Numbered from the stretch's first letter, positions 675 through 37,052 are shown. The stretch is 40,600 nucleotides of DNA from Candidatus Nomurabacteria bacterium RIFCSPLOWO2_01_FULL_41_12 (GCA_001787035.1 MFUY01000002.1:7355-47954); one strand, 5' to 3'. Program-made: numbers and translations. Notes: generated by a model not told the origin, from the letters alone.

Positions 675-753
675 CCCAGTACTAAAATTTTAAATAATAA
701 TGTTTATCCTTATTTCCCGTAATCAAAATTAGGTGAAACCGTTACGGGACAAG
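675..753 (-). repeat. Family A leader element, copy A1 (abuts the ATG of the 282..674 gene)
   Basis: The reverse complement reads ACTTGTCCCGTAACGG...AAAATTTTAGTACTGGG followed by ATG. It shares the 5' box ACTTGTCCCGT and the 3' box AAAATTTTAGTACTGGGATG with copies at 4630, 27776 and 36197. Confidence 0.7.
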
Positions 754-790
754 TATTGCTTTATCATACACTAAGAGTAGAATTGTTTCC

Positions 791-4401: not shown

Positions 4402-4426
4402 AAAGAGCCCTGAAGGGGGCTTTTTT
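4402..4426 (+). terminator. rho-independent terminator
   Basis: AAAGAGCCC - TGAAGG - GGGCTTTTT stem-loop followed by a T run, between the bPH gene and secE. Confidence 0.65.
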
Positions 4427-4629: not shown

Positions 4630-4702
4630 ACTTGTCCCGTACTAAATTTTTGATTACGAGGCATAACGATAAACATTAATAATTAAAATTTTAGTACTGG
4701 GA
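4630..4702 (+). repeat. Family A leader element, copy A2 (ends in the nusG ATG)
   Basis: ACTTGTCCCGTACTAAATTTTTGATTACG...AAAATTTTAGTACTGGGA. TCCC 4635-4638 pairs with GGGA 4699-4702, which includes the A of the ATG. Confidence 0.7.
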
Positions 4703-5258: not shown

Positions 5259-5302
5259 GTCGCGCTTAAAGGACGGTTGCGCGACATGATTTCGCAAAAT
5301 CA
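5259..5302 (+). repeat. Family B leader hairpin pair, copy B1 (abuts the rplK ATG)
   Basis: GTCGCGC (5259-5265) - 13 nt loop - GCGCGAC (5279-5285), then ATGATTTCGCAAAATCA. Near-identical copy at 31249-31294. Confidence 0.7.
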
Positions 5303-8095: not shown

Positions 8096-8583
8096 ATTTT
8101 TTCGTAGATTGAAAAGGTATAGTTAAAAGGATTCCTTTCGTCTTTTTGGCGCTCTTCGTGGGAGATTTCGTTCCAAACTACCGGTATAATTTCCGGGAAA
8201 AAGGCGTCAGCATCTTTTTCTTCCGCTTCTGTGTGGGTTATATAAAGTCTGTCGGCAATAGACATAGTTTGCTTATATAATTCTCCTCCTCCGATTATAA
8301 AAATTTCCTCGTCAGTATTTTTAAATAATTCTAATGCCTCATTTATAGAATGGGTAATTTCCACTCCGTCTTTCTTATAATTTAAATCTCTAGTAATTAT
8401 TATATTTCTCCTGTTGGGCAATGGCCTCCCCAGAGACTCAAAAGTCTTGCGTCCCATGATGACCGCATGTCCGGATGTAGTTTCCCTGAAATGCTTCATG
8501 TCTTCAGGCATATGCCACAGGAGGGTATTGTTTTTGCCTAGTTCGTTATTTTTCCCGATAGCTGCGATAAGTGAAATGGTCAT
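8092..8583 (-). CDS. folA: dihydrofolate reductase
   Basis: 163 aa. ISLIAAIGKNNELGKNNTLLWHMPEDMKHFRETTSGHAVIMGRKTFESLGRPLPNRRNIIITR and IIGGGELY. The ATG overlaps the TGA of the upstream ThyA-like gene (ATGA). Confidence 0.9.
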   Translation of the reverse strand: MTISLIAAIGKNNELGKNNTLLWHMPEDMKHFRETTSGHAVIMGRKTFESLGRPLPNRRNIIITRDLNYKKDGVEITHSINEALELFKNTDEEIFIIGGGELYKQTMSIADRLYITHTEAEEKDADAFFPEIIPVVWNEISHEERQKDERNPFNYTFSIYEKI

Positions 8584-10420: not shown

Positions 10421-11656
10421 ATGTACGCACATCATCAATCAGGACCAAAGAAATTTGGCCGTTCATCTTCTTTTAGAGCTAGACCCCGTTTAGGAGGCGG
10501 ACGGTTTTCTCGTTCAAAGAGCAATAGAAGGTCGCGTGGCGAGCACATAGATTTTTCGCGCTTTGTTAAAAAGAATGTTTATGTGGAAGAAAAGCCCTAT
10601 TTGTCCAAACACACCTTCGCAGATTTCTCCTTTAATCCTCAATTGCATAAAAACATAACTCGTGCCGGGTTCATCCATCCCCGGCCTATTCAAGACCAGG
10701 CGATACCGACGGTACTAAAAGGCTCGGACGTCTTTGGCATGGCCAATACTGGTACAGGCAAGACTGCGGCATTTTTACTTCCTTTAATTGAAAAAATCGC
10801 TAAGACCAGAGGCAAGAACATGAGAGAAAAGGTCTTGATAATGGCGCCAACTAGAGAGCTTGCGCTACAGATAGAGGAGGACTTTAAAAACCTCGCTTTT
10901 GGGTTCGGGATGTTTTCGGTCGCTTGTGTGGGAGGCCTACCTATCACCAAACAAATTAGAGAAATACAATTAGGTGTTTCGTTTATTATCGGCACACCAG
11001 GAAGATTGCGAGATTTGATAAATAGAAAGGTTCTTGATCTTTCTATTTGCCACTCTGTCGTGCTTGACGAAGCAGATAGAATGCTGGATATGGGTTTCCG
11101 GGACGACATGGTTTTTATCATCGGCAAAACTGCAAAAGAAAAGCAGACGCTTTTCTTTTCGGCGACGCTTTCCCCAGAAATTAGAAAATTAACGCAACTG
11201 TATCTAAAAGACCCAGTTTTTATTTCCGTAATTTCTGGTGAGACGTTAAAAAATATTGATCAAGATGTCGTTCGTACTAGAAGCAAAGAAGAAAAATTAA
11301 ACAAACTGCACGAAGTTTTGAAAAAAGATGGTTCCGATAAAGTGCTTATTTTTCGCGAGATGAAGCACAGCGTGGATTCTCTGGCGAAAGAATTGTCCCA
11401 TTTTGGTTTTAAAGTAGGCGCTATTCACGGCGACAAAAGAAGCCGTGAACGTATCCGCATACTGGATTCATTTAAAAAAGACAAGATTAATATTTTAATT
11501 GCCACCGACGTGGCCGCGCGCGGGCTTGATATTCCAGACGTAACGCACGTCATCAACTACGACGTGCCTCAAACCTACGATACCTACGTGCACCGTATCG
11601 GCCGCACCGGCCGTTCTGGCAAAAAAGGTACAGCCCTGACTTTCGTACCAGTATAG
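10421..11656 (+). CDS. DEAD-box ATP-dependent RNA helicase with RG/RS-rich N-terminal extension
   Basis: 411 aa. Q motif PRPIQ, Walker A ANTGTGKTAAF, PTRELA, VLDEADRMLDMGF, SAT, ARGLDI, HRIGRTGR. Confidence 0.9.
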   Translation: MYAHHQSGPKKFGRSSSFRARPRLGGGRFSRSKSNRRSRGEHIDFSRFVKKNVYVEEKPYLSKHTFADFSFNPQLHKNITRAGFIHPRPIQDQAIPTVLKGSDVFGMANTGTGKTAAFLLPLIEKIAKTRGKNMREKVLIMAPTRELALQIEEDFKNLAFGFGMFSVACVGGLPITKQIREIQLGVSFIIGTPGRLRDLINRKVLDLSICHSVVLDEADRMLDMGFRDDMVFIIGKTAKEKQTLFFSATLSPEIRKLTQLYLKDPVFISVISGETLKNIDQDVVRTRSKEEKLNKLHEVLKKDGSDKVLIFREMKHSVDSLAKELSHFGFKVGAIHGDKRSRERIRILDSFKKDKINILIATDVAARGLDIPDVTHVINYDVPQTYDTYVHRIGRTGRSGKKGTALTFVPV

Positions 11657-11676
11657 ATGTTATAATTAAAATACAT

Positions 11677-12567
11677 ATGCTTGAAGGAAATTTAGTTAAA
11701 ACTATCACTTCCGATGGCTTGGAGTTAGTCGGTTTTTGGGCCAACGCTAAAAGTGATATTGCTGTATTTCACTCTCACGGAACAGCCGGGGATTTCTACA
11801 CCCATAAATTTATAGAAGAAGAAGGAGAGAGATTGTCCCAAAAAGGTATTTCTTTTTTAACTGCCAACAATCGGGGGCATGATGTATATGCAGATATTAG
11901 AAAGCACAAAAACGGAAAGGTGAAATGGACCCAAATCGGTGGCGGGTTTGAAAAATTTGAAGATTGCCTTTTGGATATCGATGCTTGGGTTAAATTTTTA
12001 ATAAAAAATGGTGTCAAAAAAATTATTCTGCAAGGGCATAGTTTATCCCAAAAGATTTTATATTATCAGTATGCTAAGAAGAATCCAAAAGTAGTTGGAC
12101 AAATTCATTTATCACCGCAAAACGACGATGGCCTAATGTTCTTTTCTTTGGGTGCAAAGAAGTATAAAGAAATAAATAAAAAGATTAGAAAAATGATTAA
12201 AAACGGTAAGGCAAATGAGATACTTTCCAAAGATCTTTCTCCAGTCAGTTACACCACTTCGGCTCAGATGTACTCTGGTTATTTAACTGATTACGGAGTT
12301 GGAACTTTAACCCCTTATCATAATCCTAAATCAAAAAACTGGCAGATATTAGAGAAAACGAGAAACCCTCTTTTGGTTATTTTTGGTGGCAAAGATGCTT
12401 ACATTAAACCATCTCCAAAAATTGCGGCCAAACTTATAAGAGAAAAAGCAAAATTAGCCAAATCACTCGAGGTTAAAGTTATTAAAAGTGCTACCCATAG
12501 TTATATTGGCTATGAAAAAGAGTTGGTAAAAATTATTACCAATTGGATTAAAGAAAATTTTCTTTAG
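11677..12567 (+). CDS. alpha/beta-fold hydrolase
   Basis: 296 aa. Nucleophile elbow GHSLS, HG oxyanion region (FHSHGTAGD), C-terminal ATHSY. Confidence 0.65.
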   Translation: MLEGNLVKTITSDGLELVGFWANAKSDIAVFHSHGTAGDFYTHKFIEEEGERLSQKGISFLTANNRGHDVYADIRKHKNGKVKWTQIGGGFEKFEDCLLDIDAWVKFLIKNGVKKIILQGHSLSQKILYYQYAKKNPKVVGQIHLSPQNDDGLMFFSLGAKKYKEINKKIRKMIKNGKANEILSKDLSPVSYTTSAQMYSGYLTDYGVGTLTPYHNPKSKNWQILEKTRNPLLVIFGGKDAYIKPSPKIAAKLIREKAKLAKSLEVKVIKSATHSYIGYEKELVKIITNWIKENFL

Positions 12568-12572
12568 AGTTT

Positions 12573-12821
12573 TTATGCTTTTATCAAGCCAGCCTTAAGT
12601 AGAGTGGCATAGGCGCCCCGCTTTTTCATTGTGCGCATGCCTTGGACGGAGACTTCTATATTTACAAATTTGTTGATTTCAGGAATAAAAACCCTCTTCT
12701 TTTGAAGATTTAAGTATTTTCGGACTTTGCCGGTTGGATTGAATTTAGTGGCACGAGTCCTGTTGGAATACCCGCCACCTACAAGTGAACCCTTTTTTGT
12801 TATCGCGCATGTTTTCGCCAT
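12573..12821 (-). CDS. rpmB: 50S ribosomal protein L28
   Basis: 82 aa. MAKTCAITKKGSLVGGGYSNRTRATKFNP... Confidence 0.85.
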   Translation of the reverse strand: MAKTCAITKKGSLVGGGYSNRTRATKFNPTGKVRKYLNLQKKRVFIPEINKFVNIEVSVQGMRTMKKRGAYATLLKAGLIKA

Positions 12822-13470: not shown

Positions 13471-13504
13471 CCTGTCCCGTATCAAGCTTACTTTGGTTCG
13501 GGGT

Positions 13505-13533
13505 TTGCAATTTCCTCTATGTTATAGTATATT
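13505..13533 (+). promoter_or_regulatory. sigma70-like promoter upstream of rpsL
   Basis: TTGCAA (13505-13510), 17-nt spacer, TATATT (13528-13533). Confidence 0.5.
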
Positions 13534-13540
13534 TTCACCT

Positions 13541-13564
13541 GAGTCTTCGGACTCTTTTGTTTTC
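13541..13564 (+). promoter_or_regulatory. 5'-leader hairpin plus U-tract in the rpsL leader
   Basis: GAGTC-TTCG-GACTC (13541-13554) followed by TTTTGTTTTC. The same promoter/hairpin/T-run layout occurs upstream of tuf and rpsS. Confidence 0.45.
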
Positions 13565-13578
13565 AATAGTCAAATTTG

Positions 13579-14004
13579 ATGCCAACAATTAATCAATTAA
13601 TAAAGAAAAACAGGGTTAAAGTCCACGCCAAGCACAAGACGGTGGCTTTGGCCAAGGGTTTCAATGTCTTGAAAAACAGGCCGGTCTTTTTTCCGGCGCC
13701 CTTCAAGCGCGGCGTCTGCGTGAAAGTTTCAACCACGACTCCCAAAAAGCCGAACTCTGCGTTGCGTAAAATCGCCAGAGTGCGCTTGACCAACGGCATG
13801 GAAGTCACAGCCTATATTCCGGGCGAAGGACACAACTTACAAGAACACTCAGTGGTTATGCTCCGAGGAGGACGTGTGAAGGACTTGATCGGAGTACGGT
13901 ATCACATTGTGCGTGGAGTGCTTGATACACAGGGTGTTGAAAAGAGGCGTCAAGCACGTTCTCTTTATGGAAATAAGAAGCCTAAAGAAACAAAAGCAAA
14001 ATAA
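13579..14004 (+). CDS. rpsL: 30S ribosomal protein S12
   Basis: [10 protein letters not shown]..., [21 protein letters not shown] at 13579 (the track begins at an upstream TTG). Confidence 0.95.
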
Positions 14005-16635: not shown

Positions 16636-16669
16636 ATTTATGGGGGAAAATATGTGGTAGAATGGTTGA

Positions 16670-17209: not shown

Positions 17210-17232
17210 CTAACAAGAATCGTTCTTGCTAA

Positions 17233-17289
17233 TTTTATGATATAGTTCCTAATAATGTTGCCGAGACAATTATTGCCGCCAGAAAATAA
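17233..17289 (+). pseudogene. relic duplicate of the fusA 3' end ([18 protein letters not shown]-stop)
   Basis: 17236-17289 aligns codon for codon with fusA 16582-16635, with 40 of 54 nt identical. 11 differences are synonymous third positions, one is TAG vs TAA, and two fall in a single Thr-to-Ala codon. A TAA at 17230-17232 closes the frame upstream. Confidence 0.75.
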
Positions 17290-26900: not shown

Positions 26901-27329
26901 ATGTTAGTACCAAAAAAAGTAAAATTTAGAAAATGGCAAACCAAGCGCACCAATCCAAAGATGGTGTCGCCAGACACCCGGGGTACGAAGTTGTCTTTTG
27001 GTTCCTACGGTCTTAAGTCTGAGACTCAAGCGCGTGTCAAATCAACCCAAATCGAATCCGCCCGCAAGGTAATATCCCGCACTCTCACTAAAGCCGGAAA
27101 ATACTGGATTCGTATTTTCCCCGACCGCCCCTATACTTCCAAACCCCCAGAAATGGGCATGGGAAAAGGGAAAGGCGACCCACAGGGATATTGTTTTGAT
27201 GTTTTTCCGGGACGCATTATTTTTGAAGTGGACGGCGTGGATGAGGCTATTGCCCATGAAGCATTACGAAAAGCGGGCACCAAGCTTCCGCTTAAAGTAA
27301 GAATTATTGGGAGAACTCATAAGCAATAA
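26901..27329 (+). CDS. rplP: 50S ribosomal protein L16
   Basis: 142 aa. MLVPKKVKFRKWQ, MGKGKG. Confidence 0.95.
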   Translation: MLVPKKVKFRKWQTKRTNPKMVSPDTRGTKLSFGSYGLKSETQARVKSTQIESARKVISRTLTKAGKYWIRIFPDRPYTSKPPEMGMGKGKGDPQGYCFDVFPGRIIFEVDGVDEAIAHEALRKAGTKLPLKVRIIGRTHKQ

Positions 27330-27332
27330 TAC

Positions 27333-27345
27333 AAGGACCGTCCTT
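27333..27345. repeat. Family D palindrome, copy D4 (rplP-rpmC spacer)
   Basis: AAGGAC-C-GTCCTT, perfect. Confidence 0.6.
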
Positions 27346-27352
27346 AAAAAAC

Positions 27353-27547
27353 ATGAAAACAAAGAAAGACAATTTAAAAGGAATGAAAAAGGATGAGCTC
27401 AAGAAAAAGCTTGTTGTCCTGGAAGAGAATGTGCGAGTTATTAGATTTAAGGCGGAAGGTTCAAAATCAAAGAATGTAAAAGAGTCGGCAACTTTAAGAA
27501 AAGAAATTGCTCGAATATTAACAGAGATAAATAACAAAAAGAAATGA
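27353..27547 (+). CDS. rpmC: 50S ribosomal protein L29
   Basis: 64 aa. [20 protein letters not shown]. The TGA stop overlaps the rpsQ ATG. Confidence 0.9.
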
Positions 27548-27771
27548 ATAAAGGTAATATCTTAAAAGGAGTGGTTGTTTCGGACAAGATGGATAAGACC
27601 GTGATTGTAACAGTGTCGCGATTTATCAAGCATCCGCTTTACGGCAAATTTTATAAAGTAAATAAGAAATACAAAGCGCATGACCAGGAAAATAAATATA
27701 AAATCGGAGATAAGGTAGAAATAGTTGAAACCAGGCCGATTTCAAAAGACAAAAGATTTAAAGTGGTATAA
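27544..27771 (+). CDS. rpsQ: 30S ribosomal protein S17
   Basis: 75 aa. [45 protein letters not shown]. Confidence 0.95.
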
Positions 27772-27775
27772 TTAT

Positions 27776-27847
27776 ACTTGTCCCGTTGCAAATTCAACGA
27801 ATGGGACATAAAGGATAAAAATTATTAATTAAAATTTGCAACTGGGA
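27776..27847 (+). repeat. Family A leader element, copy A3 (ends in the rplN ATG; classical S10|spc boundary)
   Basis: ACTTGTCCCGTTGCAAATT...AATTTGCAACTGGGA. GTTGCAAATT 27785-27794 pairs perfectly with AATTTGCAAC 27833-27842, and TCCC pairs with GGGA 27844-27847. It carries three compensatory pair changes relative to A2 and A4. Confidence 0.75.
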
Positions 27848-28218
27848 TGATACAAAACGAAAGTTTAGTTAAAATAACAGATAACGCTGGAGGCACCGTG
27901 GGTAAAGTGTTCAAGATTTTAGGCTCTTCAAAAAAAAGATACGCGACTTTGGGCGAATTGGTTATTATTTCTGTGAAAGTAGCTTCTCCACGAAAAGGGG
28001 TAAAGAAGAAAGACGTGCATCAGGCAGTCGTCGTACGCACCAGAAGCGCCTACAGAAGGAAGGATGGATCTTATATTCGTTTTGACGATAATGCTGTAGT
28101 GCTCTTGGAAAAAGGCAAGCTTGACCCGAAAGCCGGGCGCGTCTTCGGTCCGATACCGAGAGAGCTTGCTGAAAAGGGATTTCAAAAAATAATTTCGCTG
28201 GCGCAGGAAGTAATTTAA
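27847..28218 (+). CDS. rplN: 50S ribosomal protein L14
   Basis: 123 aa. MIQNESLVKITDNAGG. Confidence 0.95.
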   Translation: MIQNESLVKITDNAGGTVGKVFKILGSSKKRYATLGELVIISVKVASPRKGVKKKDVHQAVVVRTRSAYRRKDGSYIRFDDNAVVLLEKGKLDPKAGRVFGPIPRELAEKGFQKIISLAQEVI

Positions 28219-28236
28219 AAAAGTTTCTTAAAATAT

Positions 28237-28455
28237 ATGAAATTAAAAAAGGGAGACAACATAATAATCATAACAGGCAAGGATAAAGGTAAAAAAGGCA
28301 AGATTGTCCGTGTTTTGGTGCGAGAGAATAAAGTTATTGTTGAAGGGGCAAATATGAGCAAAAAGCATCAGCGTCCCAGAAAGTCTGGCGAAAAGGGGAG
28401 GATGATAGATATGGCTATGCCGATACACGCTTCAAATGTTAAAAAAGCAGAATAA
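28237..28455 (+). CDS. rplX: 50S ribosomal protein L24 (short form)
   Basis: 72 aa. MKLKKGDNIIIITGKDKGKKGKI KOW motif. Confidence 0.9.
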   Translation: MKLKKGDNIIIITGKDKGKKGKIVRVLVRENKVIVEGANMSKKHQRPRKSGEKGRMIDMAMPIHASNVKKAE

Positions 28456-28464
28456 ATAGTTAAT

Positions 28465-29049
28465 ATGAAACATTTAACCGTAAAAGAAAAAGAAGTGCAA
28501 GCCTTTGAGAAAATGAAAAACTCTACTGTGGCGTTAAGCTCGGAGTTTCATTATAAAAATGCCATGGCTTCGCCGAAGATGGAGAAGATTGTTTTGAACA
28601 CAGGCACTGGGACAGCCATCAAGAAAGATAAAAATAAAAATGATGCTATCGGAGAACGTTTAGCCAAAATTACCGGGCAGAGGCCGGTTCTAAAAGGCGC
28701 CAAGCAGTCCATTGCGTCTTTTAAAGTCCGCCAGGGCGACCCTATCGGCATCGTTGTGACATTGAGGGGCAAGAGGATGTATGCTTTCCTAGAAAAACTT
28801 ATAAATGTCGCCATCCCCCGCACCAAAGATTTCCGTGGTATTGCCCGCACGGCAGTGGATACTATCGGCAACCTCACCATTGGCATCAAAGAACACACTA
28901 TTTTTCCGGAAACAGCTGATGAAGATATCCGCGACGTTTTCGGCATGTCTATTACTCTGGTTTCCACAGCTAAAAATAAAAAAGAAGGTACAGCTTTCTT
29001 TGAACTCCTGGGTGTCCCTTTCAAGAAGGAAGAAGAGAAAAAGAAATAA
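28465..29049 (+). CDS. rplE: 50S ribosomal protein L5
   Basis: 194 aa. PKMEKIVLNTGTG, ITGQRPV, FRGI, GIKEHTIFPE. Confidence 0.95.
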   Translation: MKHLTVKEKEVQAFEKMKNSTVALSSEFHYKNAMASPKMEKIVLNTGTGTAIKKDKNKNDAIGERLAKITGQRPVLKGAKQSIASFKVRQGDPIGIVVTLRGKRMYAFLEKLINVAIPRTKDFRGIARTAVDTIGNLTIGIKEHTIFPETADEDIRDVFGMSITLVSTAKNKKEGTAFFELLGVPFKKEEEKKK

Positions 29050-29121
29050 ACCCGAACACTTATATGTATAACGCAACTTCGTTGCGCACTTTTGGCGCAT
29101 TATGCAAATAAGTGTGTGGGT
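29050..29121 (+). other. long-loop hairpin abutting the rplE stop
   Basis: ACCCGAACACTTAT (29050-29063) pairs with ATAAGTGTGTGGGT (29108-29121), 12 of 14 complementary. Internal CGCAAC-TTC-GTTGCG. The arms resemble the 3766-3794 terminator hairpin. Confidence 0.5.
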
Positions 29122-29194
29122 AAAGTTATCCACAGTTTTTATTGATATATGAATATATAGGTCTACTATTAAGGATGGAGTCTGTACATCAGTG

Positions 29195-29550
29195 TGAGTA
29201 GATTCCCGTGCACTGCCCACGTATCGGCAGAAGAAAGCAAAGAGGATCCTCACATGACGAATCGTCTGGCGCCCAACTGGGCGCAGATCAGCGGCAAGCA
29301 GATCTTCTTCAAGCATCCGTTCGGCGTCGGCAACACCAACAAGGAGGCGCAGGGCGGCACGTAGGCGAAGAAGCCAAGCGCGCCGCGGCATCAGGGGTTT
29401 CATCGCAAGGTGAGTAGGTCTTCGGGACCATGGCTCACTAGGGACGGGAAGGGACGGCGCACACAACATCGTGCTCCTTCCCCCCGTCCTTCTCTATTTC
29501 TACCTTGACTATTCCGCGCTTATTTGCTAGGCTCAAGGGGCCTAGCAATA
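29195..29550 (+). other. GC-rich insert 2 between rplE and rpsN: leader, SD plus 36-codon ORF, and hairpin-rich 3' part
   Basis: 146 of 240 nt are G+C in 29221-29460. Possible promoter TTGATA-16-TACTAT at 29142-29169. Hairpins at 29410-29438, 29441-29489 (GGGACGGGAAGGG / CCTTCCCCCCGTCC, then TTCTCTATTTCT) and 29524-29548 (TTGCTAGGC-TCAAGGG-GCCTAGCAA). 8-nt direct repeat GTGAGTAG at 29194 and 29410. Confidence 0.55.
29254..29364 (+). CDS. candidate 36-aa small protein MTNRLAPNWAQISGKQIFFKHPFGVGNTNKEAQGGT (no family recognised)
   Basis: ATG preceded by AAAGAGGA, whose GGA ends 7 nt upstream. 33 of 36 codons end in G or C, unlike the A/T-ending usage of neighbouring genes. TAG stop at 29362-29364. 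Too short for the ORF track. Confidence 0.4.
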   Translation: MTNRLAPNWAQISGKQIFFKHPFGVGNTNKEAQGGT

Positions 29551-29589
29551 GATCGATCTGTATTTCTCCTTAAGGTCTTTAGTAGTTTT

Positions 29590-29618
29590 TTGAAGAACTT
29601 TAAGAAAAAATATACGAT
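29590..29618 (+). promoter_or_regulatory. possible promoter re-initiating at rpsN
   Basis: TTGAAG (29590-29595), 17-nt spacer, TACGAT (29613-29618). Weak call. Confidence 0.3.
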
Positions 29619-29662
29619 ATCATCTATAAAAATAGGCGATATTTACTAGTTAATTTTTTTTG

Positions 29663-29848
29663 ATGGCAAAAACATCAGTAAAAGCGAGAGCTTCAAAGAA
29701 ACCCAAATTCAGCACCCGGGCCAAGAACCGATGTTTTCGCTGTGGCCGAGGCAATGCTTTTATGAGAGATTTCGGCATTTGCCGTATTTGTTTCAGAGAG
29801 TTGGCAAATGAAGGAATGTTACCGGGTGTTCGTAAATCAAGCTGGTAG
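29663..29848 (+). CDS. rpsN: 30S ribosomal protein S14, zinc-binding type Z
   Basis: 61 aa from the ATG at 29663. CFRCGR...CRICFRE double CxxC, C-terminal LPGVRKSSW. Confidence 0.95.
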
Positions 29849-29852
29849 TTAA

Positions 29853-29890
29853 CAGGTGTTGGACACCCGAATTCGGGTGTCCAACACCTG
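29853..29890. repeat. Family C hairpin, copy C1: perfect 38-nt palindrome (rpsN-rpsH spacer)
   Basis: CAGGTGTTGGACACCCGAA|TTCGGGTGTCCAACACCTG. Followed by the tandem CACCTGAAG x2. No U-tract. Confidence 0.8.
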
Positions 29891-29910
29891 AAGCACCTGA
29901 AGCATAAAAA

Positions 29911-30297
29911 ATGGATTCAATTGCAAACATGTTAATAGTAATGAAGAATGGAGGTGAAGCCGGCAAAGAGTCCGTACTCTTACCGTATTCTAAAATGAAG
30001 AATGCTATTTTGGAATGTCTGCAGAAGGAAGGTTATGTAAATTCTGTCTCCAAGAAAGTCAAAAAAGATCAGCCGGTACTGGAAGTAGGTCTGATTTATA
30101 TGGAAGAAAAGCCAAAAATCGCAGAAGTTGAAAGGATTTCCAAACAGTCCAGGCGTGTCTATTTTAAAATGAAAGATATTCATAGAGTTAGAAACGGAGC
30201 AGGACTGCTCGTGCTTTCCACACCGAAAGGCATTTTATCCGGTAAAGAAGCGCGCAAAGAACAAGTCGGAGGTGAAGCGTTATTCAGAATTTGGTAA
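29911..30297 (+). CDS. rpsH: 30S ribosomal protein S8
   Basis: 128 aa. DSIANMLIVMKNG, GGEALFRIW. Confidence 0.95.
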   Translation: MDSIANMLIVMKNGGEAGKESVLLPYSKMKNAILECLQKEGYVNSVSKKVKKDQPVLEVGLIYMEEKPKIAEVERISKQSRRVYFKMKDIHRVRNGAGLLVLSTPKGILSGKEARKEQVGGEALFRIW

Positions 30298-30301
30298 ATT
30301 T

Positions 30302-30835
30302 ATGAGTAGAATAGGCAAACAAGAAATAGTTATACCAGGGGGAGTGAAAGTCACACAGAGTGGTCCTACTCTTACTGTTGTCGGTCCTAAAGGTACACTA
30401 ACTAAAAATTTCAGAGATGATATTACTATCACTATTGCCGGCAATGCCATAAATTTAAATATCAAGAGAAATGACAAATTCTCCAAATCTCTCTGGGGCA
30501 CTTATGCTTCACATATCAAGAATATGATTGCCGGAGTACAAACGCCGTATCAGAAGAAATTAATCCTAGAAGGCGTGGGGTTCAAGTCCGAAGTCAAGGG
30601 CAAAACTCTTAATTTTGCCCTAGGGTTTTCCCATCCGGTCATTGTGGAAATTCCGGACACCATTACCGCTACTGCCGATAAAAATAATATTACGATTACC
30701 GGGATTGATAAGGAATTAGTTGGAAGTTTTACCGCTGCCATCCGTGCCTTAAAGAAACCGGAGCCTTACAAGGGCAAAGGGATGCGTTATGAGGGCGAGG
30801 TTATCAGGCGCAAGCAAGGCAAGAAGACAGTTTAA
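30302..30835 (+). CDS. rplF: 50S ribosomal protein L6
   Basis: 177 aa from the ATG at 30302. MSRIGKQEIVIPGGVKV, YKGKGMRYEGE. Confidence 0.95.
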   Translation: MSRIGKQEIVIPGGVKVTQSGPTLTVVGPKGTLTKNFRDDITITIAGNAINLNIKRNDKFSKSLWGTYASHIKNMIAGVQTPYQKKLILEGVGFKSEVKGKTLNFALGFSHPVIVEIPDTITATADKNNITITGIDKELVGSFTAAIRALKKPEPYKGKGMRYEGEVIRRKQGKKTV

Positions 30836-30888
30836 ATACAGGTGTTAAATACAGGTGTTGGACACCCGGGTTCAGGTGTCCAACACCT
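30834..30888. repeat. Family C hairpin, copy C2 (rplF-rplR spacer) with tandem 13-mer
   Basis: AAATACAGGTGTT x2, then AGGTGTTGGACACC (30853-30866) pairing with GGTGTCCAACACCT (30875-30888). Same arms as C1. Confidence 0.8.
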
Positions 30889-30902
30889 AGAGAATAAAAA
30901 TC

Positions 30903-31244
30903 ATGCAAAAGAAAAACAACAAAAGAATAAGGCTGAAGAAGAGAATCAGAGTAAAAATCAAAGGTACTGAAACGCGCCCGCGTCTGACTGTTTTTCGTTC
31001 AAATAAATTTATCTATGCGCAAATTATCAATGACTTGGCGGGGAAAACTTTAGTGCAGGCAAGTGACGTGAAAGTGACCAAAGGAACGAAGACAGAGAGA
31101 GCCAAGGAAGTAGGCCGCCTGATAGGCGCTCTTTGTCTGAAAATAAAAATTAGCAAAGTTGTTTTTGATCGCAACGGATTTAAGTATACCGGAAGGATAA
31201 AGACAGTAGCAGATGAAGCCAGGGCTTCAGGTCTTCAATTTTAA
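30903..31244 (+). CDS. rplR: 50S ribosomal protein L18
   Basis: 113 aa. RPRLTVFRSNKFIYAQI, FDRNGFKYTGRIK. Confidence 0.95.
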   Translation: MQKKNNKRIRLKKRIRVKIKGTETRPRLTVFRSNKFIYAQIINDLAGKTLVQASDVKVTKGTKTERAKEVGRLIGALCLKIKISKVVFDRNGFKYTGRIKTVADEARASGLQF

Positions 31245-31248
31245 TAGC

Positions 31249-31294
31249 GTCGCGCTTTAATGGACGATTGCGCGACATGATTTCGTAAAATCAT
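31249..31294 (+). repeat. Family B leader hairpin pair, copy B2 (abuts the rpsE ATG)
   Basis: GTCGCGC (31249-31255) - 14 nt loop - GCGCGAC (31270-31276), then ATGATTTCGTAAAATCAT. Confidence 0.7.
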
Positions 31295-31885
31295 ATGGAA
31301 AAGACAAAAGAAAAAAAGAATAATAATCGCAGAGGATCCTCTTTCGGACGAGCAAAGCCGGAGTTTGACCAGAAGATTTTAAATATTCGCCGCGTGACCA
31401 GGGTTGTCGCTGGCGGACGCCGGTTTTCCTTTAGCGTCGCTTTGGTGGCCGGGGATAAAAAGGGGTCTGTTGGTTTAGGCTTGGGAAAAGCGGGAGATAC
31501 GGCACTCGCGATAAATAAAGCAGTACGCAATGCCAAGAAAAATATGATAAGGTTAAAGTTGACAAAGACAATGTCTATTCCCCACGAGCTTTCTGCTAAG
31601 TTTTCAAGCTCACGAATTATTCTTTTGCCGAACAAGGGTCGCGGGCTGGTAGCTGGCTCGGTTATTCGCGATATAATAAAACTCTCCGGGATGAAGGATA
31701 TTACTGGGAAAATCGTGTCTAATAGCAAGAATAAATTAAACAATGCCAAAGCAGTCATGGAGGCTCTCTCTGTTATTTCTTCAAAATATGCAAAACCAGT
31801 AGTGGAAAACATTACCATAGTCCCGGTAGAAGTTCCTATCCCCGCAACATTTATTAAAGATGTAAAAGAGGAACCCCAGCAGTAG
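31295..31885 (+). CDS. rpsE: 30S ribosomal protein S5
   Basis: 196 aa. INRVTKVV-like RRVTRVVAGGRRFSFSVALVAGD, GLGLGKAGD. Confidence 0.95.
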   Translation: MEKTKEKKNNNRRGSSFGRAKPEFDQKILNIRRVTRVVAGGRRFSFSVALVAGDKKGSVGLGLGKAGDTALAINKAVRNAKKNMIRLKLTKTMSIPHELSAKFSSSRIILLPNKGRGLVAGSVIRDIIKLSGMKDITGKIVSNSKNKLNNAKAVMEALSVISSKYAKPVVENITIVPVEVPIPATFIKDVKEEPQQ

Positions 31886-31943
31886 AGCGAAGCTCACTAC
31901 GGGGCAAGAAAAAATAAATAAATAAAATTTCTGTAAAAAATAT

Positions 31944-32246
31944 ATGCAAATACATAATTTAAAAAGAACTCATAAAAATAAAAAAGATCGGCTGGTGGGC
32001 CGTGGTGGGAAGCACGCCAAGACTTCTGGCCGCGGAGGCAAGGGCCAAACGGCTCGCGCCGGTAACAAGCGCCGTCCGGAACTTCGTGATATCATTAAGA
32101 AATTGCCGAAGAATCGCGGGTACAGATTTAAGTCTGTTCGCAGGGCATTGGTTCTTTCAAAAGAGAAGCTTGCCTCTCCAGGTGAAAAGTTTTCGGATAT
32201 TCGCAAGCGCCTCGGAATAAAGGGCAAGAAGATAAAGATTAGATAA
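31944..32246 (+). CDS. rplO: 50S ribosomal protein L15 (short form)
   Basis: 100 aa. VGRGGKHAKTSGRGGKGQTARAG. It directly follows rpsE with no L30 gene between. Confidence 0.85.
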   Translation: MQIHNLKRTHKNKKDRLVGRGGKHAKTSGRGGKGQTARAGNKRRPELRDIIKKLPKNRGYRFKSVRRALVLSKEKLASPGEKFSDIRKRLGIKGKKIKIR

Positions 32247-32247
32247 A

Positions 32248-33519
32248 ATGTTGAATTTTTGGAACAAAATGAAATTAGTCTGGACGGATACTTCACTACG
32301 AAAAAGGGTATTCTTCGTGCTTTTTATATTGATATTGTTCAGACTGCTTTCGGCTATTCCTATTCCCGGCATCGATACATTGCAACTCAATCGATTTCTC
32401 TCTAACAATCAATTTTTCGGTATTTTAAATATATTCTCCGGAGGCGGGCTTTCCAACCTTTCCATTATAATGCTCGGTGTCGGTCCGTATATTACTAGCT
32501 CGATTATTATGCAGCTTTTGACCATTATGGTTCCGGCTTTAAAGAAAATTTACCACGAAGAAGGTGAGGCTGGCAGAAAGAGGTTTACCCAATACTCCAG
32601 ACTGCTTACTGTGCCTTTGGCCGGTCTTCAAGGCTTCGCTCTTTTGGCTATTTTAGAAAGCCAGAATATTTTAGTTAATCTGACGGCTTTTGACAGAGTG
32701 ACGAATTTAATTATTGTGGTTGCTGGGTCAATCTTGCTAATGTGGCTGGGCGAGCTTGTGTCCGAATTCGGCATCGGGAACGGCGTGTCGCTCATAATTT
32801 TTGCCGGTATTGTGGCGACTTTGCCTTCACAGGTCAGCCAGCTTGCCTTCACTTTTGATGTTTCTCAAGTTCCGCTTTATTTGATGTTTATGGTCGTGGG
32901 CGTCTTGGTCATTGCCGGCATTGTCCTTGTGACTGAAGCCGAACGCCCGATTCCCGTCACTTATGCCAAGCGTGTCAGGGGGATGAAAATGTACGGCGGC
33001 GGTTCCACTTATCTGCCGCTCCGGGTCAACCAAGCCGGAGTGATTCCGATAATTTTCGCTCTTTCCATCCTGCTTTTCCCGCAAATGATCGGCACTTTTT
33101 TGTCGCGCTTTGATAATGTGATAATTGCGAAAATTTCCAGCCTGCTTATTTCATTTACACAAACCTCAGTGCTTTATGCAATACTCTACTTTATTTTGGT
33201 ATTTCTTTTTACTTATTTTTATACGGCAGTCACTTTTGACCCCGAGGCGCTCTCCACCAACTTGCAAAAAAACGGTGCTTTTATTCCCGGTATCCGCCCG
33301 GGCGCGTCAACTTCCGACTATATTTCTAAAGTCTTGAGCCGTATCACGCTTCTCGGCGCTGTCTTTCTGGGCTTTATCGCTGTATTGCCTCTCATTATGC
33401 AATTTGCCACCGGGATAGCTGCTTTGGCGCTCGGTGGCACTTCAATCTTGATCGTCGTCTCTGTCGTCTTAGACCTGATGAAAAAAGTGGATTCGCAAAT
33501 CTCCATGCGAGAGTATTAA
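32248..33519 (+). CDS. secY: preprotein translocase subunit SecY
   Basis: 423 aa. IPIPGID, FSGGGLSNLSIIMLGVGPYITSSIIMQLL, RVNQAGVIPIIFA. Confidence 0.95.
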   Translation: MLNFWNKMKLVWTDTSLRKRVFFVLFILILFRLLSAIPIPGIDTLQLNRFLSNNQFFGILNIFSGGGLSNLSIIMLGVGPYITSSIIMQLLTIMVPALKKIYHEEGEAGRKRFTQYSRLLTVPLAGLQGFALLAILESQNILVNLTAFDRVTNLIIVVAGSILLMWLGELVSEFGIGNGVSLIIFAGIVATLPSQVSQLAFTFDVSQVPLYLMFMVVGVLVIAGIVLVTEAERPIPVTYAKRVRGMKMYGGGSTYLPLRVNQAGVIPIIFALSILLFPQMIGTFLSRFDNVIIAKISSLLISFTQTSVLYAILYFILVFLFTYFYTAVTFDPEALSTNLQKNGAFIPGIRPGASTSDYISKVLSRITLLGAVFLGFIAVLPLIMQFATGIAALALGGTSILIVVSVVLDLMKKVDSQISMREY

Positions 33520-33551
33520 AACTACTAGGCAAGACCTAGTCGAAAAAGATT

Positions 33552-34067
33552 ATGTCAAAAAAAGAAAAAATAGAAATAATAATGACAGGGGGAACAATAG
33601 ATTCCTCGTGGAATGGTATTAAAGATACAGCCATTGTAAATGCTCATTCCATAATCCCTGGTTATTTCAAGAAATTAATTATTTATCCGGAAATTAAATT
33701 TACTGAAATTTGTATGAAGGATAGCAGGGAAATAAACCAGGAAGATATTAAAAATATCTTGAAAAAAATTGAAAAAAGTAAAGCAAATAAAGTTCTTATA
33801 ACGCATGGTACATATACTATGCCTGATACAGCAAAATTTCTTGAAGCCAATTTAAAAAGAAAAGATCAAACTATTGTTTTCACAGGTTCCATGGTTCCCC
33901 TAGAAGGTGTTTATCCCACTGACGCAGGTTTTAATCTTGGTTTTGCCATTTCTAAAGTTCAAGAGCTTAAACCAGGGTTTTATATATGTATGAATGGTGA
34001 AACTTTTAGTCCTCAAGAAGTAGTAAAGAATTTAGGCGAAGGGAAGTTCTATTCCATATTTAGATAA
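33552..34067 (+). CDS. asparaginase N-terminal-domain protein (short form)
   Basis: 171 aa. IIMTGGTIDS and LITHGTYTMPDTA match the asparaginase/GatD-type N-domain motifs. Confidence 0.6.
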   Translation: MSKKEKIEIIMTGGTIDSSWNGIKDTAIVNAHSIIPGYFKKLIIYPEIKFTEICMKDSREINQEDIKNILKKIEKSKANKVLITHGTYTMPDTAKFLEANLKRKDQTIVFTGSMVPLEGVYPTDAGFNLGFAISKVQELKPGFYICMNGETFSPQEVVKNLGEGKFYSIFR

Positions 34068-34093
34068 GTTAGGAAATTATTTCCCAAGGAAAG

Positions 34094-34936
34094 ATGAAAA
34101 CCCCGGAATATCCAATTAAGAGAATAGAAAAATCTCCTCTTAAAAAAGTTGAACAAGCGCCTAATGTGCCTATTATTGATATTATTCGTCACGGGGACAC
34201 AGATTATAAACAAGGGCGGGGTGATGACTATAAAAGGGCGCAACTCAATACTAGTTTTCCTGGTTTCAAGTTAGATAGCGAGCATTTGGATTTAACGCGT
34301 GGGGGGATAATAACGATGAAGGAAGCGGCCCTTCAGCTAGTAAATATAATAGATAGAGCAAATGAAGTAGTTTTGATAATTAGTTCACCATCTCAGCGTG
34401 CGCATTCATCGGCATTAGTTGTGGAAAAGGAATTAAGAGATAACGGCATAAATATTTTAAATGGCACAGGGGAATTTAAATTCGCCGGGGCGTTAGATGA
34501 AGCCAGTTCACGATTAGATAAATTGCGTGATAAATATTATAGCAAAGAAGGCAATCCTAAAACTGACGAGGGCCACGTTGATATTAGAGACAAACGTCAT
34601 GAGGTTGAAGCCTTAGCTTTCCAACGATTTTTACGACATATGAATAATATTTATAAATGGCTGAAACCAGAAACCCTAGAAAAGATAAAAGGAAAAAGGT
34701 TAAGAATTGTATGTTTCACTCACGGCGAAATTACAGGTCATTTTATCCCTGAAGCTTTTCATTTCACAGCTGAAGGAGGCCATCAAAAAAGAAGTCAAAT
34801 TTTAGAAATTTTGCCTAAGTCTCAACTTATAGCAGGCAAAAAGATTACCACTAATGTAAAATTATATCCAACTAGAGAAAGGGACTCTGGAAAAGATGGA
34901 CAAATAACAAGAGGTTTTAAGCCGAAGAATAGCTAG
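34094..34936 (+). CDS. histidine phosphatase (phosphoglycerate mutase-like) family protein
   Basis: 280 aa. IIRHGDTDY (RHG motif), SSPSQRAHSSA, FTHGEI. Confidence 0.65.
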   Translation: MKTPEYPIKRIEKSPLKKVEQAPNVPIIDIIRHGDTDYKQGRGDDYKRAQLNTSFPGFKLDSEHLDLTRGGIITMKEAALQLVNIIDRANEVVLIISSPSQRAHSSALVVEKELRDNGINILNGTGEFKFAGALDEASSRLDKLRDKYYSKEGNPKTDEGHVDIRDKRHEVEALAFQRFLRHMNNIYKWLKPETLEKIKGKRLRIVCFTHGEITGHFIPEAFHFTAEGGHQKRSQILEILPKSQLIAGKKITTNVKLYPTRERDSGKDGQITRGFKPKNS

Positions 34937-35534
34937 GTGTATTTTTGTACCCCTCAATTGCTTTTAAGATATCTTTGGTAACTTTCGAGATAGATTGATT
35001 GCCGTTGATTGTTTTGAGCTTTTTTAGGCTTTTAAAATACTTTACGGTTTTGCCGACTTGGTCTTTATGCCATTTTATGCGAGTAACAATAAGCTTTTTT
35101 GTATCAAATACTTTATAGATTGCTTTCATATTTCCGACTTTGCGCAAGAGAGAGCGTTTATACACTTCTTTGTCTGAGAGAGTAATGTATAAAGCTAAAA
35201 AATCCTGATTTTGTGAGTAAAGAATTTTTTTTACAAGCTGGCCTTCCGGCTTGAGCCTAGGAGTACCCAGAAAGAGCAGGTCTTTGTTTTTTGGCTTGTT
35301 TTTTATTTCTCTAATTAAGAATCTTTGTAGCAAAACAGTCGGTAAAGGTTTGCCTTTTCCCGTGGTTCTCCTAGCCCAGTCGCCATTTTTACTTTTTTCT
35401 TTTAGGAGCTTGCGTGAATATACACCGGACTCAACAAATTTTAACGCATATTTCTTTTTTAGAATGTTGGCTTGGGTTTCTTTGCCGGAAGCTATCATTC
35501 CGAGAAGCACTATGTTAAATCCAAGTTTTTTCAT
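34917..35534 (-). CDS. adenylate kinase-like nucleoside monophosphate kinase paralog
   Basis: 205 aa. P-loop LLGMIASGKETQ, and LGTPRLKPEGQ corresponding to the DGFPR..Q region. Opposite strand to the surrounding cluster. Confidence 0.6.
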   Translation of the reverse strand: MKKLGFNIVLLGMIASGKETQANILKKKYALKFVESGVYSRKLLKEKSKNGDWARRTTGKGKPLPTVLLQRFLIREIKNKPKNKDLLFLGTPRLKPEGQLVKKILYSQNQDFLALYITLSDKEVYKRSLLRKVGNMKAIYKVFDTKKLIVTRIKWHKDQVGKTVKYFKSLKKLKTINGNQSISKVTKDILKAIEGYKNTPSYSSA

Positions 35535-35597
35535 AATAAAGCCATTCTATTACAAAATCCTTGATTATTCAAGCTAAATTTTGTATTGTTTAGATAT

Positions 35598-36194
35598 ATG
35601 CCAAATGAAAATAGTCAGACTTTCGTATTTTTTGGAATAGTGGGCTCCGGCAAAGGGACACAGGTGAAATTGCTGATGGATTTTTTAAAGACTCGTGACG
35701 GACGGGAGATAGTTTATGCTTACCCAGGTAATGAGTACAGGAAACTTATAGAGTCCGGTAGCTATACTGGTTCTTTGGTAAAAGGTCCTGTTTCTCGTGG
35801 TGAACTTCTTCCCGGTTTTTTAACTGACGCTATTGTTACAAATATTCTCATTTTATCTTTGACTCCAGAGAAACATTTGATTGCCGATGGATACCCTCGC
35901 GCAGTAGCCCAATCTATGAGCTTTGAAAAAATGATGGAGTTTTATAAACGGAAAGACATAAAGATTATTTATATTGAAGTAAAAAAAGAGGAAGGAATAA
36001 AGAGAAATCTTTTACGTGGTCGGCATGATGATACAGGAGAAGGTCTTGCCAAAAGATTTGATGAATATGTAAACAATGTAGTGCCAGCGATGAATTATTT
36101 TAAAGATAAAGAAAATTATAAGATTTATCCTATCAATGGCGAGCAATCAGTAGAAAATGTGCATAAAGATATTATCGAAGCTCTGGGGTTTTAG
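35598..36194 (+). CDS. adk: adenylate kinase
   Basis: 198 aa from the ATG at 35598. FFGIVGSGKGTQ, DGYPRAVAQ, RGRHDD. Canonical position before map. Confidence 0.8.
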   Translation: MPNENSQTFVFFGIVGSGKGTQVKLLMDFLKTRDGREIVYAYPGNEYRKLIESGSYTGSLVKGPVSRGELLPGFLTDAIVTNILILSLTPEKHLIADGYPRAVAQSMSFEKMMEFYKRKDIKIIYIEVKKEEGIKRNLLRGRHDDTGEGLAKRFDEYVNNVVPAMNYFKDKENYKIYPINGEQSVENVHKDIIEALGF

Positions 36195-36196
36195 CC

Positions 36197-36270
36197 ACTT
36201 GTCCCGTACTAAATTTTTGATTAAGATAAATGACCACTCTTAGTAACAATTTAAAATTTTAGTACTGGGA
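36197..36270 (+). repeat. Family A leader element, copy A4 (ends in the map ATG)
   Basis: ACTTGTCCCGTACTAAATTTTTGATTAAG...AAAATTTTAGTACTGGGA. Both boxes are identical to copy A2. Confidence 0.7.
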
Positions 36271-37052
36271 TGATAATTATTAAAACACCAGAAGAAATAG
36301 AAATACTGCGAAAAGGGGGCAGGCATCTGGCGGCTGTGCTTCATAAAGTAAAAGAGAAAATAAAACCAGGAATTTCCACGAAAGATTTGGATGATTATGC
36401 ATTTAAGTTAATTAATGAAATGGGCGACTCTCCCGCATTTTTGAATTATCGTCCAGCCGGCGCGAAAGTTCCTTTTCCTGCAAGTCTTTGTGTGTCTGTC
36501 AATGATGAAGTAGTGCACGGCATTCCAAACAAGGAAAGAATATTAAAAGAGGGTGACATTGTCGCGCTTGATTTAGGACTTAAGCATAAAGGGCTTTTTA
36601 CCGACATGGCATTTACGGTACCAGTAGGGAAAGTGAGTTCTAGCGCTCTTAAATTAATGGAGGTGACAGAGAAGGCACTGCAAGTGGGCATCAATGCGGC
36701 GCAAGCCGGCAATACGGTAGGGGACATCGGCCATGCCGTTGAGAGTTTTGTGCGTGCCCAAAAAAACAGCCAGCAGTACGGTATTGTAGAAGTTCTCTCG
36801 GGGCACGGAGTCGGACGCGCAATACATGAAGACCCCTATATACCCAACTTTGGGAAAAAAGGGAAAGGAGAAAAGTTAGTTCCGGGCATGGTCATTGCGC
36901 TCGAGCCGATGATAAATAACGGCACAAAAAATGTGACTTTGGACGATGACGGCTACACTTTCCGCACAGCTGACAGCAAAAACAGCGCGCATTTTGAGCA
37001 TACAATTTTGATTACCGAAAATGGGCCGGAAATTTTGACCAAAACTTTTTAA
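36270..37052 (+). CDS. map: type I methionine aminopeptidase
   Basis: 260 aa. VVHGIP, DIVALDLG, FTDMAFT, GHGVGRAIHE, ALEPM, FEHTILIT. Confidence 0.95.
   Translation: MIIIKTPEEIEILRKGGRHLAAVLHKVKEKIKPGISTKDLDDYAFKLINEMGDSPAFLNYRPAGAKVPFPASLCVSVNDEVVHGIPNKERILKEGDIVALDLGLKHKGLFTDMAFTVPVGKVSSSALKLMEVTEKALQVGINAAQAGNTVGDIGHAVESFVRAQKNSQQYGIVEVLSGHGVGRAIHEDPYIPNFGKKGKGEKLVPGMVIALEPMINNGTKNVTLDDDGYTFRTADSKNSAHFEHTILITENGPEILTKTF

Follow-up and report, generated by a model that had tools for sequence, protein, structure and literature searches.

The Correia elements of Neisseria (CREE/NEMIS) are short, non-coding, palindromic insertions that occur in many copies near genes and are co-transcribed with them, some of them supplying promoters. 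Bacteria of the Candidate Phyla Radiation are uncultured, and their gene expression is largely unexplored. Here we describe a palindromic repeat, Family A, in a 40,600-nucleotide stretch (hereafter the window) of Candidatus Nomurabacteria bacterium RIFCSPLOWO2_01_FULL_41_12 (GCA_001787035.1 MFUY01000002.1:7355-47954), equivalent to contig C2:7355-47954 of genome G000, which is 666 kb long, 40% GC and 91% complete. The focal copy, A3, ends at the start codon of rplN. With a probability of about 0.5, we read Family A as a lineage-specific insertion element of Candidatus Nomurabacteria, similar to miniature inverted-repeat transposable elements (MITEs) and REPINs, whose self-looping RNA hairpin would keep the site of ribosome entry beside the AUG.

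A first-pass annotation of the window had described four copies, each ending at the ATG of a gene, and the sequence agrees, with GGG immediately 5' of every ATG. The segments it listed as common to all copies, 5' ACTTGTCCCGT and 3' ACTGGGATG, are invariant alignment columns, and the three fully compensated pairs it had read between the rplN copy (5' GTTGCAAA, 3' TTTGCAAC) and the others (GTACTAAA and TTTAGTAC) were confirmed. The competing proximal partners it pointed out are also real (TCCCGTAA/TTACGGGA in A1, GTCCCGTT/AATGGGAC at 27800-27807 in A3). Three of the four window copies fold at -18 to -22 kcal/mol, with z-scores of -3.3 to -5.3 (RNAfold against shuffled sequences; A3, -18.4 kcal/mol and z = -3.3); the minus-strand copy A1 folds no better than its shuffles (z = 0.03). 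SecE, S17 and adenylate kinase are encoded just upstream of window copies, as identified by Pfam, and the 130-aa open reading frame (ORF) downstream of A1 has no Pfam match.

The annotation had also claimed that the 5' box pairs with the start-codon region, with compensatory changes, and had proposed a covariation check. A covariation analysis of 62 distinct copies from many species revealed a covarying helix, with 92.8% of cells paired and 49 cells in which both sides had changed. None of 500 shuffles reached the observed values, which collapsed when the partner was slid by 1-3 columns. The helix had been said to include the A of the AUG; it does, and in addition all three AUG bases are paired, to a conserved YGU. 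Bottom pairs U-A, G-U, and U-G join 5' UGU to AUG, often with one further pair. The whole is a bulged hairpin of 20-28 bp with arms complementary over at least 15 bp; the mean energy is -19.9 kcal/mol for the full fold, which in most copies takes in the A and U of the AUG, and -3.5 kcal/mol for the 3' half alone.

Because the canonical type carries a bulged U 5' of GGG that variants lack, the arms were re-registered by hand for pair counts (29 distinct arm pairs, 10 bp next to CCC/GGG). This gave 255 Watson-Crick, 16 G-U, 1 A-C, and 18 other pairs, 12 of the last corresponding to a constant extra T. The excess of G-U over A-C indicates folding of the sense strand, whether in RNA or in single-stranded DNA. 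Free variation is limited to about three central pairs (GTACT, GTTAG, GTTGC, GTACG, GTAGT, GTATT, and others), and the flanking arm parts CCCG and AAATT are nearly fixed. Pairing can also be followed at a single locus, in seven ftsA orthologues whose proteins are 65-76% identical to that of this genome. Their 5' arms are identical, and their 3' arms differ at three kinds of position, one disruptive and two wobble-compatible (A-to-G in this genome, C-to-T in three relatives). Since these arms stay paired, selection on pairing appears to extend beyond the copying stage to copies already in place; gene conversion by copies elsewhere may be another source of the kept pairing. The helix runs into the AUG and coding sequence without a U tract and is thus not an intrinsic terminator. 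A canonical terminator, a GC-rich hairpin followed by a T run, lies just before secE (window 4405-4426), which shows that the organism uses ordinary terminators and that Family A is not one.

An alternative fold had likewise been suggested, and the competing local hairpin was found to covary too. About half of the copies, those with type i loops, carry UACGGGRY, which is able to pair with 5' GUCCCGUA at about -10 kcal/mol; in this local helix GTA occurs with TAC in 27 copies and GTT with AAY in 5, and GTT with TAC in 0. A box at a fixed position of the type i loop reads CATAAA or CATAAC in most copies and TATAAT in many relatives. A full extended -10 is present there in 12-17 of 133 copies, including all seven ftsA orthologues, whose loops have diverged except for GTGRTATAAT; judged from these motifs, an internal promoter in a subset of copies is plausible. 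In type ii loops the motif is (A/G)TGACCA or, as its reverse complement, TGGTCA, placed 16 nt 5' of TAAAAT.

The genome holds 24 full sense-strand copies, on which a helix scan, nhmmer, and a covariance model (R1, built on alignment A2) were concordant, and CTTGTCCCGT occurs 14 times against 0-1 for a reversed-pattern control. All 24 face a gene start, with zero spacing between GGG and ATG in 22. Elements measure ~72 nt (long-loop forms ~115 nt), begin with 5'-ACYTGTCCCGTW... and end with ...WAC(N)GGG-3', in a single orientation immediately 5' of the start codon. Genes downstream of genome copies include mreB, ftsA, murJ, pilC, pilM, fba, purA, pheT, atpI-like and RNase J-like genes, and those for an M48 peptidase, a NUDIX protein, an exonuclease, an MFS transporter, YraN, and a TrpR-like protein. 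As these are unrelated housekeeping genes, the element is not a gene-specific leader. R1 found 1-22 copies each in 43 of 61 congeneric genomes and none in the remaining 18 (without G076, an unpublished congener whose locus was excluded from the junction analysis, the tally is 42 of 60); among other families of the order only 1 of 16 gave a match, a weak one. More than 118 stretches of public metagenome-assembled genomes, mostly labelled Candidatus Nomurabacteria or Paceibacterota, contain the exact 17-mer of the arm core.

No description of Family A was found in the searchable literature or in Rfam. At the gathering threshold Rfam returned one tRNA in the window and no family for the element, and with 20 copies searched at E<=1 it returned only a chance miRNA match (E = 0.64). 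Literature searches on leaderless or Shine-Dalgarno-less translation, or on RNA motifs, in Patescibacteria, Parcubacteria, and Nomurabacteria yielded nothing relevant.

Comparison of orthologous sites disclosed a variable distribution. Of the 29 species read at the S17|L14 junction, this genome and 28 relatives, this genome alone has the element there. At secE|nusG, 3 of 30 species carry it, in versions with two different loop types; the sequence of one empty site is stop-GTCTATACC-ATG, against stop-...CCTATAC-[element]-ATG in this genome. Within the spc cluster of other species the element precedes rplX, rplE, rpsE, rplO, or secY, where this genome has a 5-12-nt spacer, and in filled sites the ~72-nt block sits exactly between the short spacer and the ATG. 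More than 60 different genes lie downstream of copies across species. When the downstream ORFs of 105 relatives' copies were compared with this genome, a minority were at shared genes (ftsA 6, nusG 3, yraN 2, and murJ, purA, pheT, exonuclease, and TrpR-like 1 each), most being at genes that lack the element here. One locus may carry, in different species, a short type i, type ii, long-loop (~115 nt), or different arm type. The presence/absence pattern and the range of 0-22 copies among congeners are those of an insertion element, or at the least of a sequence gained and lost very rapidly. Of the roles offered by the first-pass annotation, a mobile promoter-leader cassette fits best: filled and empty sites support the mobility, and an extended -10 is confined to some loops. 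Its alternative of a marker of operon or sub-operon boundaries fails, given the single occupied S17|L14 junction and spc-cluster targets that differ between species. For the same junction, together with the count of more than 60 downstream genes, a gene-specific autoregulatory leader of the r-protein operator type was rejected.

The host context bears on how such an insertion could be tolerated. Of 478 genes, 41 have a Shine-Dalgarno 4-mer at -20 to -4 and 46 have one in a control window, no GGAGG-type motif was found in the upstream regions inspected, and the assembly contains no 16S rRNA for a check of the anti-Shine-Dalgarno sequence. The extended -10 pattern TGnTAnnnT ends 6, 7, or 8 nt 5' of the ATG in 59, 20, and 13 of 479 genes, respectively (92/479), a sharp peak that implies widespread leaderless mRNAs. 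In 12 of 133 copies the last base of this pattern lies 12 nt 5' of CCC and 6 nt 5' of the first A of the element, and in 21 it is within a few nt of that position; transcription should then start at the hairpin base. A co-oriented ORF terminates a short distance 5' of 97 of 129 copies (75%), its stop codon mostly beginning 10-13 nt before CCC, i.e., 1-4 nt before the element, so most copies lie in formerly very tight stop-start junctions. A 70-nt profile upstream of 135 copies displayed no fixed promoter, only A/T richness in the last 8 nt, and a motif scan placed a -10 box at a fixed upstream distance in a minority of copies only. In front of A3, the gap between the TGGTATAAT box and the element is tighter than the usual 6 nt. 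A leaderless promoter for the gene's own ATG was rejected, as the bases 7-12 nt 5' of the ATG are variable arm and hold no -10 box.

In the mechanism we propose, new copies come in as clean blocks between a short A/T-rich spacer and the ATG, at genes that vary, in a host that makes no use of Shine-Dalgarno sequences and whose promoter-proximal genes have an extended -10 located 6-8 nt before the ATG. The element would be co-transcribed with the gene where a host -10 puts +1 on its first A or, more commonly, by read-through from a cistron that stops a few nt before the helix base. The sense strand adopts the 20-28-bp bulged hairpin with YGU-AUG and CCC-GGG as bottom pairs, as is evident from the covariation and G-U tolerance. 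Looping-out would restore the adjacency of the AUG to the ribosome entry site, whether this is the 5' end of the mRNA or the stop codon upstream. A ribosome terminating upstream would melt the weak helix bottom and free the AUG. Initiation would thereby stay coupled despite the ~72-nt insertion while becoming dependent on the upstream event. Such looping-out in a host without Shine-Dalgarno use would make the insertion tolerable before essential genes. Some copies with an extended -10 in the loop, for example those of all seven ftsA orthologues, may also supply an internal promoter. Going further, the element may be specialised on first codons, with the hairpin acting as a splint that carries ribosomes from the 5' end or upstream stop to an AUG ~72 nt away, a suggestion we make only tentatively. 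This would amount to a bacterial multi-copy form of ribosome shunting or structure-mediated coupling, in which the competing local hairpin could be co-opted as a switch.

Several observations weigh against the insertion element with a bridging hairpin. The transcription start, the co-transcription of both arms, and the effect on translation are all deduced from sequence; among public runs, a search with window 27001-37000 listed no RNA run containing it, a result that counts neither for nor against. The G-T tolerance would equally suit a hairpin of single-stranded DNA, and a stable helix over the AUG could simply repress translation. The arms are conserved far beyond the needs of pairing, which points to a sequence-specific partner that the model does not name. 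Differential loss from a many-copy ancestor may also account for the empty sites. The main type has no target-site duplication (none in 72 GTCCC-type copies), no transposase is linked to the family, and in the four loci read Family A adjoins no Y1 gene. G048 and G054, both near-complete, have 18 and 20 copies, respectively, and 0 PF01797 matches.

Internal promotion with fold-back insulation, RNase III processing, and a role in DNA only are live rivals, some of them compatible with the looping-out model. A transcript begun at a loop -10 might be without the 5' arm, its leader of ~28 nt being open and rich in A/U, and the AUG would be sequestered by the 5' arm only in read-through RNA, so that the gene would be translated only from its own promoter, as in IS10. 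This appears rather doubtful to us. It accords with the fixed position of the loop box and its TATAAT or extended -10 form in 12-17 of 133 copies (the seven ftsA orthologues included), with a 3' half that alone is essentially unstructured (-3.5 kcal/mol), and with the lack of a promoter at a fixed upstream position in most copies; yet the commonest box, CATAAA/CATAAC, lacks T1 and T6 of this genome's -10 boxes, type ii and long-loop copies have no such box, and in 12 to 21 copies a host -10 starting at the element's first base would have both arms transcribed. It would, moreover, be costly to keep rplN, secY, or nusG on the operon transcript from being translated. A cut of the RNase III type, near the bulged U or at GGG|AUG, would separate the cistrons and leave a nearly leaderless mRNA, a form that suits a host without Shine-Dalgarno use. 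We consider it improbable: it would fall 0-4 bp from the helix bottom, atypical for RNase III, and would leave unexplained those copies whose transcript already begins at the helix base, even though the enzyme is encoded in the genome (127 bits; contig C12:3069-3464), the 20-28 bp helix has conserved bulges and almost invariably zero spacing to the AUG, and leaderless-type initiation appears to be the host norm.

Polymorphic occupancy (0 to 22 copies), a master sequence with rarer variants, shorter hairpins that share part of the termini (one nested in another), and the abundance of Y1/RAYT-like genes in the genus would all suit a purely selfish palindrome, one that needs its hairpin only as single-stranded DNA for copying, in the manner of REP/REPIN-RAYT, and has no role in RNA; the ATG position would then reflect target choice and the purging of harmful insertions. 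We find this unlikely, because orthologous copies in place have remained paired through long divergence, most of their changes being wobble-compatible, the YGU at the 5' side of the element is complementary to the host AUG, and high copy numbers occur without any PF01797 match. A regulatory leader passed on by vertical descent, acting as an operator of translation or as a two-state RNA switch through which one global factor would control a growth regulon, is far less credible. The two mutually exclusive and covarying helices, the arm conservation in excess of pairing needs, and the growth-related targets speak for it, but the ~72-nt block is cleanly present or absent at one junction in close relatives (proteins 85-97% identical), one locus carries different loop and arm types, the second helix is missing in half of the copies, and 18 of 61 congeners lack the element.

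To evaluate mobilisation, we considered the PF01797 Y1/RAYT-like genes, which are common in the genus at 0-11 per genome. Each of the four Y1 homologues of this genome is flanked by its own short palindrome, not by Family A, and G003 combines 11 PF01797 matches with 0 element copies. A RAYT link as a requirement was therefore rejected, as the flanking hairpins differ and copy number and PF01797 do not track each other. Family A has the terminal inverted repeats of MITEs and their clean-boundary presence/absence polymorphism at orthologous sites; of the features of REP/REPIN-RAYT systems, a cognate flanked RAYT, co-occurrence across genomes, and a location unrelated to start codons are lacking. 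No parent autonomous element with the same ends was seen near copies, a statement that rests on no systematic search. Six of eight ATCCC-type copies are flanked by a direct ATGRA(T) repeat, four of these six positions being also explained by pairing; the repeat puts a second ATG 6 nt before CCC, and in two copies a -10 box is set to start transcription there. The TrpR-like regulator was considered as well, since its gene carries the element, and was rejected because its presence does not track the element across the 61 genomes; the arms contain GTACTA, as does the E. coli trp operator.

A second family of short (~44 nt), GC-rich hairpins shares part of the terminal motif, YTGYCCCGTAS ... STAC(N)GGGR, which suggests a wider family with common ends. 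These hairpins lie inside ORFs and at gene ends: one is in frame, one spans a stop codon, and one is nested in another's loop. Coordinates of these and the other features are collected in Table 1.

Table 1. Features of the window and related loci in genome G000 (window positions unless a contig is named)
Feature	Location	Strand	Remarks
Copy A3 (focal)	27776..27846	+	first A to last G 5' of the rplN ATG; covariance model R1, 72.2 bits
Copy A3, 5' arm	27778..27794	+	TTGT with AUGA (wobble pairs), then CCC, then GTTGCAAATT
Copy A3, loop segment AATGGGAC	27800..27807	+	alternative partner of 5'-arm GTCCCGTT, from local-helix covariation
Copy A3, loop box CATAAA	27807..27812	+	slot of TATAAT / extended -10 (TGnTATAAT) in other copies
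Copy A3, 3' arm	27832..27846	+	AAATTTGCAAC, bulged T (27843), GGG
rplN (L14)	27847..28218	+	Pfam Ribosomal_L14, E = 2.4e-41; AUG forms the helix bottom
TGGTATAAT, extended -10-like box	27764..27772	+	overlaps rpsQ stop codon; 3 nt 5' of copy A3 first A
Copy A2	4630..4701	+	precedes nusG; orthologous junction empty in 27/30 species
Copy A4	36197..36269	+	precedes M24 methionine-aminopeptidase-type gene; loop type ii (ATGACC box)
Copy A1	675..754	-	precedes 130-aa ORF; ~8-nt insertion interrupts 5' arm
Isolated 5' box CCTGTCCCGTA	13471..13481	+	upstream of rpsL promoter; no 3' arm
Leaderless-type promoter examples	756-790, 11650-11676, 16640-16669, 17225-17254		
RAYT/IS200-like Y1 homologues (four)	C9:5518-6162(-), C10:844-1506(+), C20:9889-10578(+), C25:1514-2242(+)		HUH motif NHFH
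ATCCC-type copies	C1:7180-7268, C20:3893-3971, C20:35324-35402; relatives L083, L085, L089		no bulge; direct ATGRA(T) repeat
~44-nt hairpins (YTGYCCCGTAG...CTAC(N)GGGR)	window 31874-31904; C6:~725-765, C15:~34548-34590, C17:~8495-8535		
~44-nt hairpins, further	C30:~49905-49985, C31:~12500-12580		

Some copies and candidates depart from the common layout. The long-loop copy at C28:3437-3550 of this genome (L056), like those of two relatives (L153:2601-2716 and L161:2713-2828), ends in GGGATT and not GGGATG; an ATG in the loop of the C28 copy opens a 715-aa ORF, and its 3' arm codes for the start of the hydrophobic N-terminus (KILVLG...). A mini form at C9:8459-8508, with the canonical arms GTACTAAATTTT and AAAATTTAGTAC closed by a 3-nt loop, is flanked by an extended -10 box and by a second TATAAT box located 6 nt 5' of an ATG. 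Apparent bidirectional copies on contigs C1 and C20 were rejected as the same palindromes read backwards, one facing a tRNA antisense and the other no ORF. An upstream ORF through the element was also rejected: the MFS copy alone has one, which begins at an ATG further 5' and closes at a TGA that overlaps the true ATG, and canonical copies have none.

The first-pass annotation had further noted a partial 5' box, CCTGTCCCGTA, upstream of rpsL, which is indeed present and is either a remnant or a chance match; in one relative a complete Family A copy stands directly 5' of the rpsL ATG. The rpsL leader itself (window 13500-13578) contains a promoter-like TTGCAA / TGTTATAGT pair followed, 5' of the ATG at 13579, by a terminator-like hairpin and T run (GAGTCTTCGGACTC TTTTGTTTT), and may be a candidate attenuator. 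A relative's rpsL leader has an equal layout together with a full Family A copy.

Other small hairpins and repeats were observed in the vicinity. In the S17|L14 spacer of several relatives (L260, L261, L264, and L266), a small TCCCGCCAAAGGCGGACAAGT-type hairpin lies directly 5' of the rplN ATG, its 3' end being the reverse complement of the Family A start ACTTGTCC. The hairpin GGTGTCCAACACC occurs at window 29876-29888 and 30875-30887, just upstream of two genes of the ribosomal-protein cluster, and a near-identical hairpin flanks the RAYT-like gene on contig C25. The palindrome ACTAGGTCTTGCCTAGT lies at window 33524-33540, before the gene at 33552, and on both sides of the RAYT-like gene C10:844-1506. 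A repeated ~30-nt leader, GGACGRTTGCGCGACATGATTTCGYAAAATCA, is found at window 5268-5302 and 31260-31294, directly before the ATGs at 5303 and 31295, and is unrelated to Family A.

In a Nomurabacteria genome with no Shine-Dalgarno signal and a strong leaderless-type promoter signature, a repeat family has thus colonised the exact position of initiation before essential genes (rplN, nusG, secY, and ftsA), with a hairpin that is maintained by selection on one strand. If this hairpin does bridge or gate initiation, it would represent a new kind of translation coupling and a natural reporter of how start codons are found without Shine-Dalgarno pairing. The element resembles a conserved leader or a regulon and can mislead annotation; within the clade it also serves well to mark recent changes of the genome.

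Among described systems, the Correia elements are likewise short palindromic multi-copy insertions near genes that fold via inverted ends. They generate a TA target duplication, are found at variable distances from genes, and live in a host that uses Shine-Dalgarno sequences, whereas Family A has zero spacing to the ATG, a single orientation, a paired AUG, and a main type without duplication. REP/REPIN-RAYT systems share with it hairpin repeats and a master sequence with compensated variants, and the genus possesses Y1/RAYT genes with hairpins of their own; REPINs, however, lie mostly after genes and in either orientation, and Family A flanks no RAYT. Palindromic repeats tolerated in reduced genomes and touching coding sequence are also known as Rickettsia palindromic elements (RPEs). 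These insert in frame within genes, unlike Family A, which lies outside the ORF at the first codon; one Family A copy does have its 3' arm inside an ORF.

Resemblances in possible function come from elsewhere. In the fold-back inhibition of IS10 and IS50, a sequence near the element's outer end can pair with the region of the start codon, but does so only when transcription has entered from outside; IS10 protects the element's own transposase gene, whereas Family A is non-coding and the gene is the host's. The intercistronic RNase III sites of phage T7 are bulged hairpins of similar size between the cistrons of a polycistronic RNA, but they are not mobile repeats and include no start codon, and the cleavage of Family A is only a proposal. 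In ribosome shunting and long-range coupling, as in the cauliflower mosaic virus (CaMV) 35S leader and T4 gene 60, a stem joins a take-off point on the 5' side with a landing or start site on the 3' side. We know of no bacterial multi-copy shunting element; the two cases belong to a eukaryotic virus and a phage and are single-case mechanisms, and Family A would resemble them only in its possible working.
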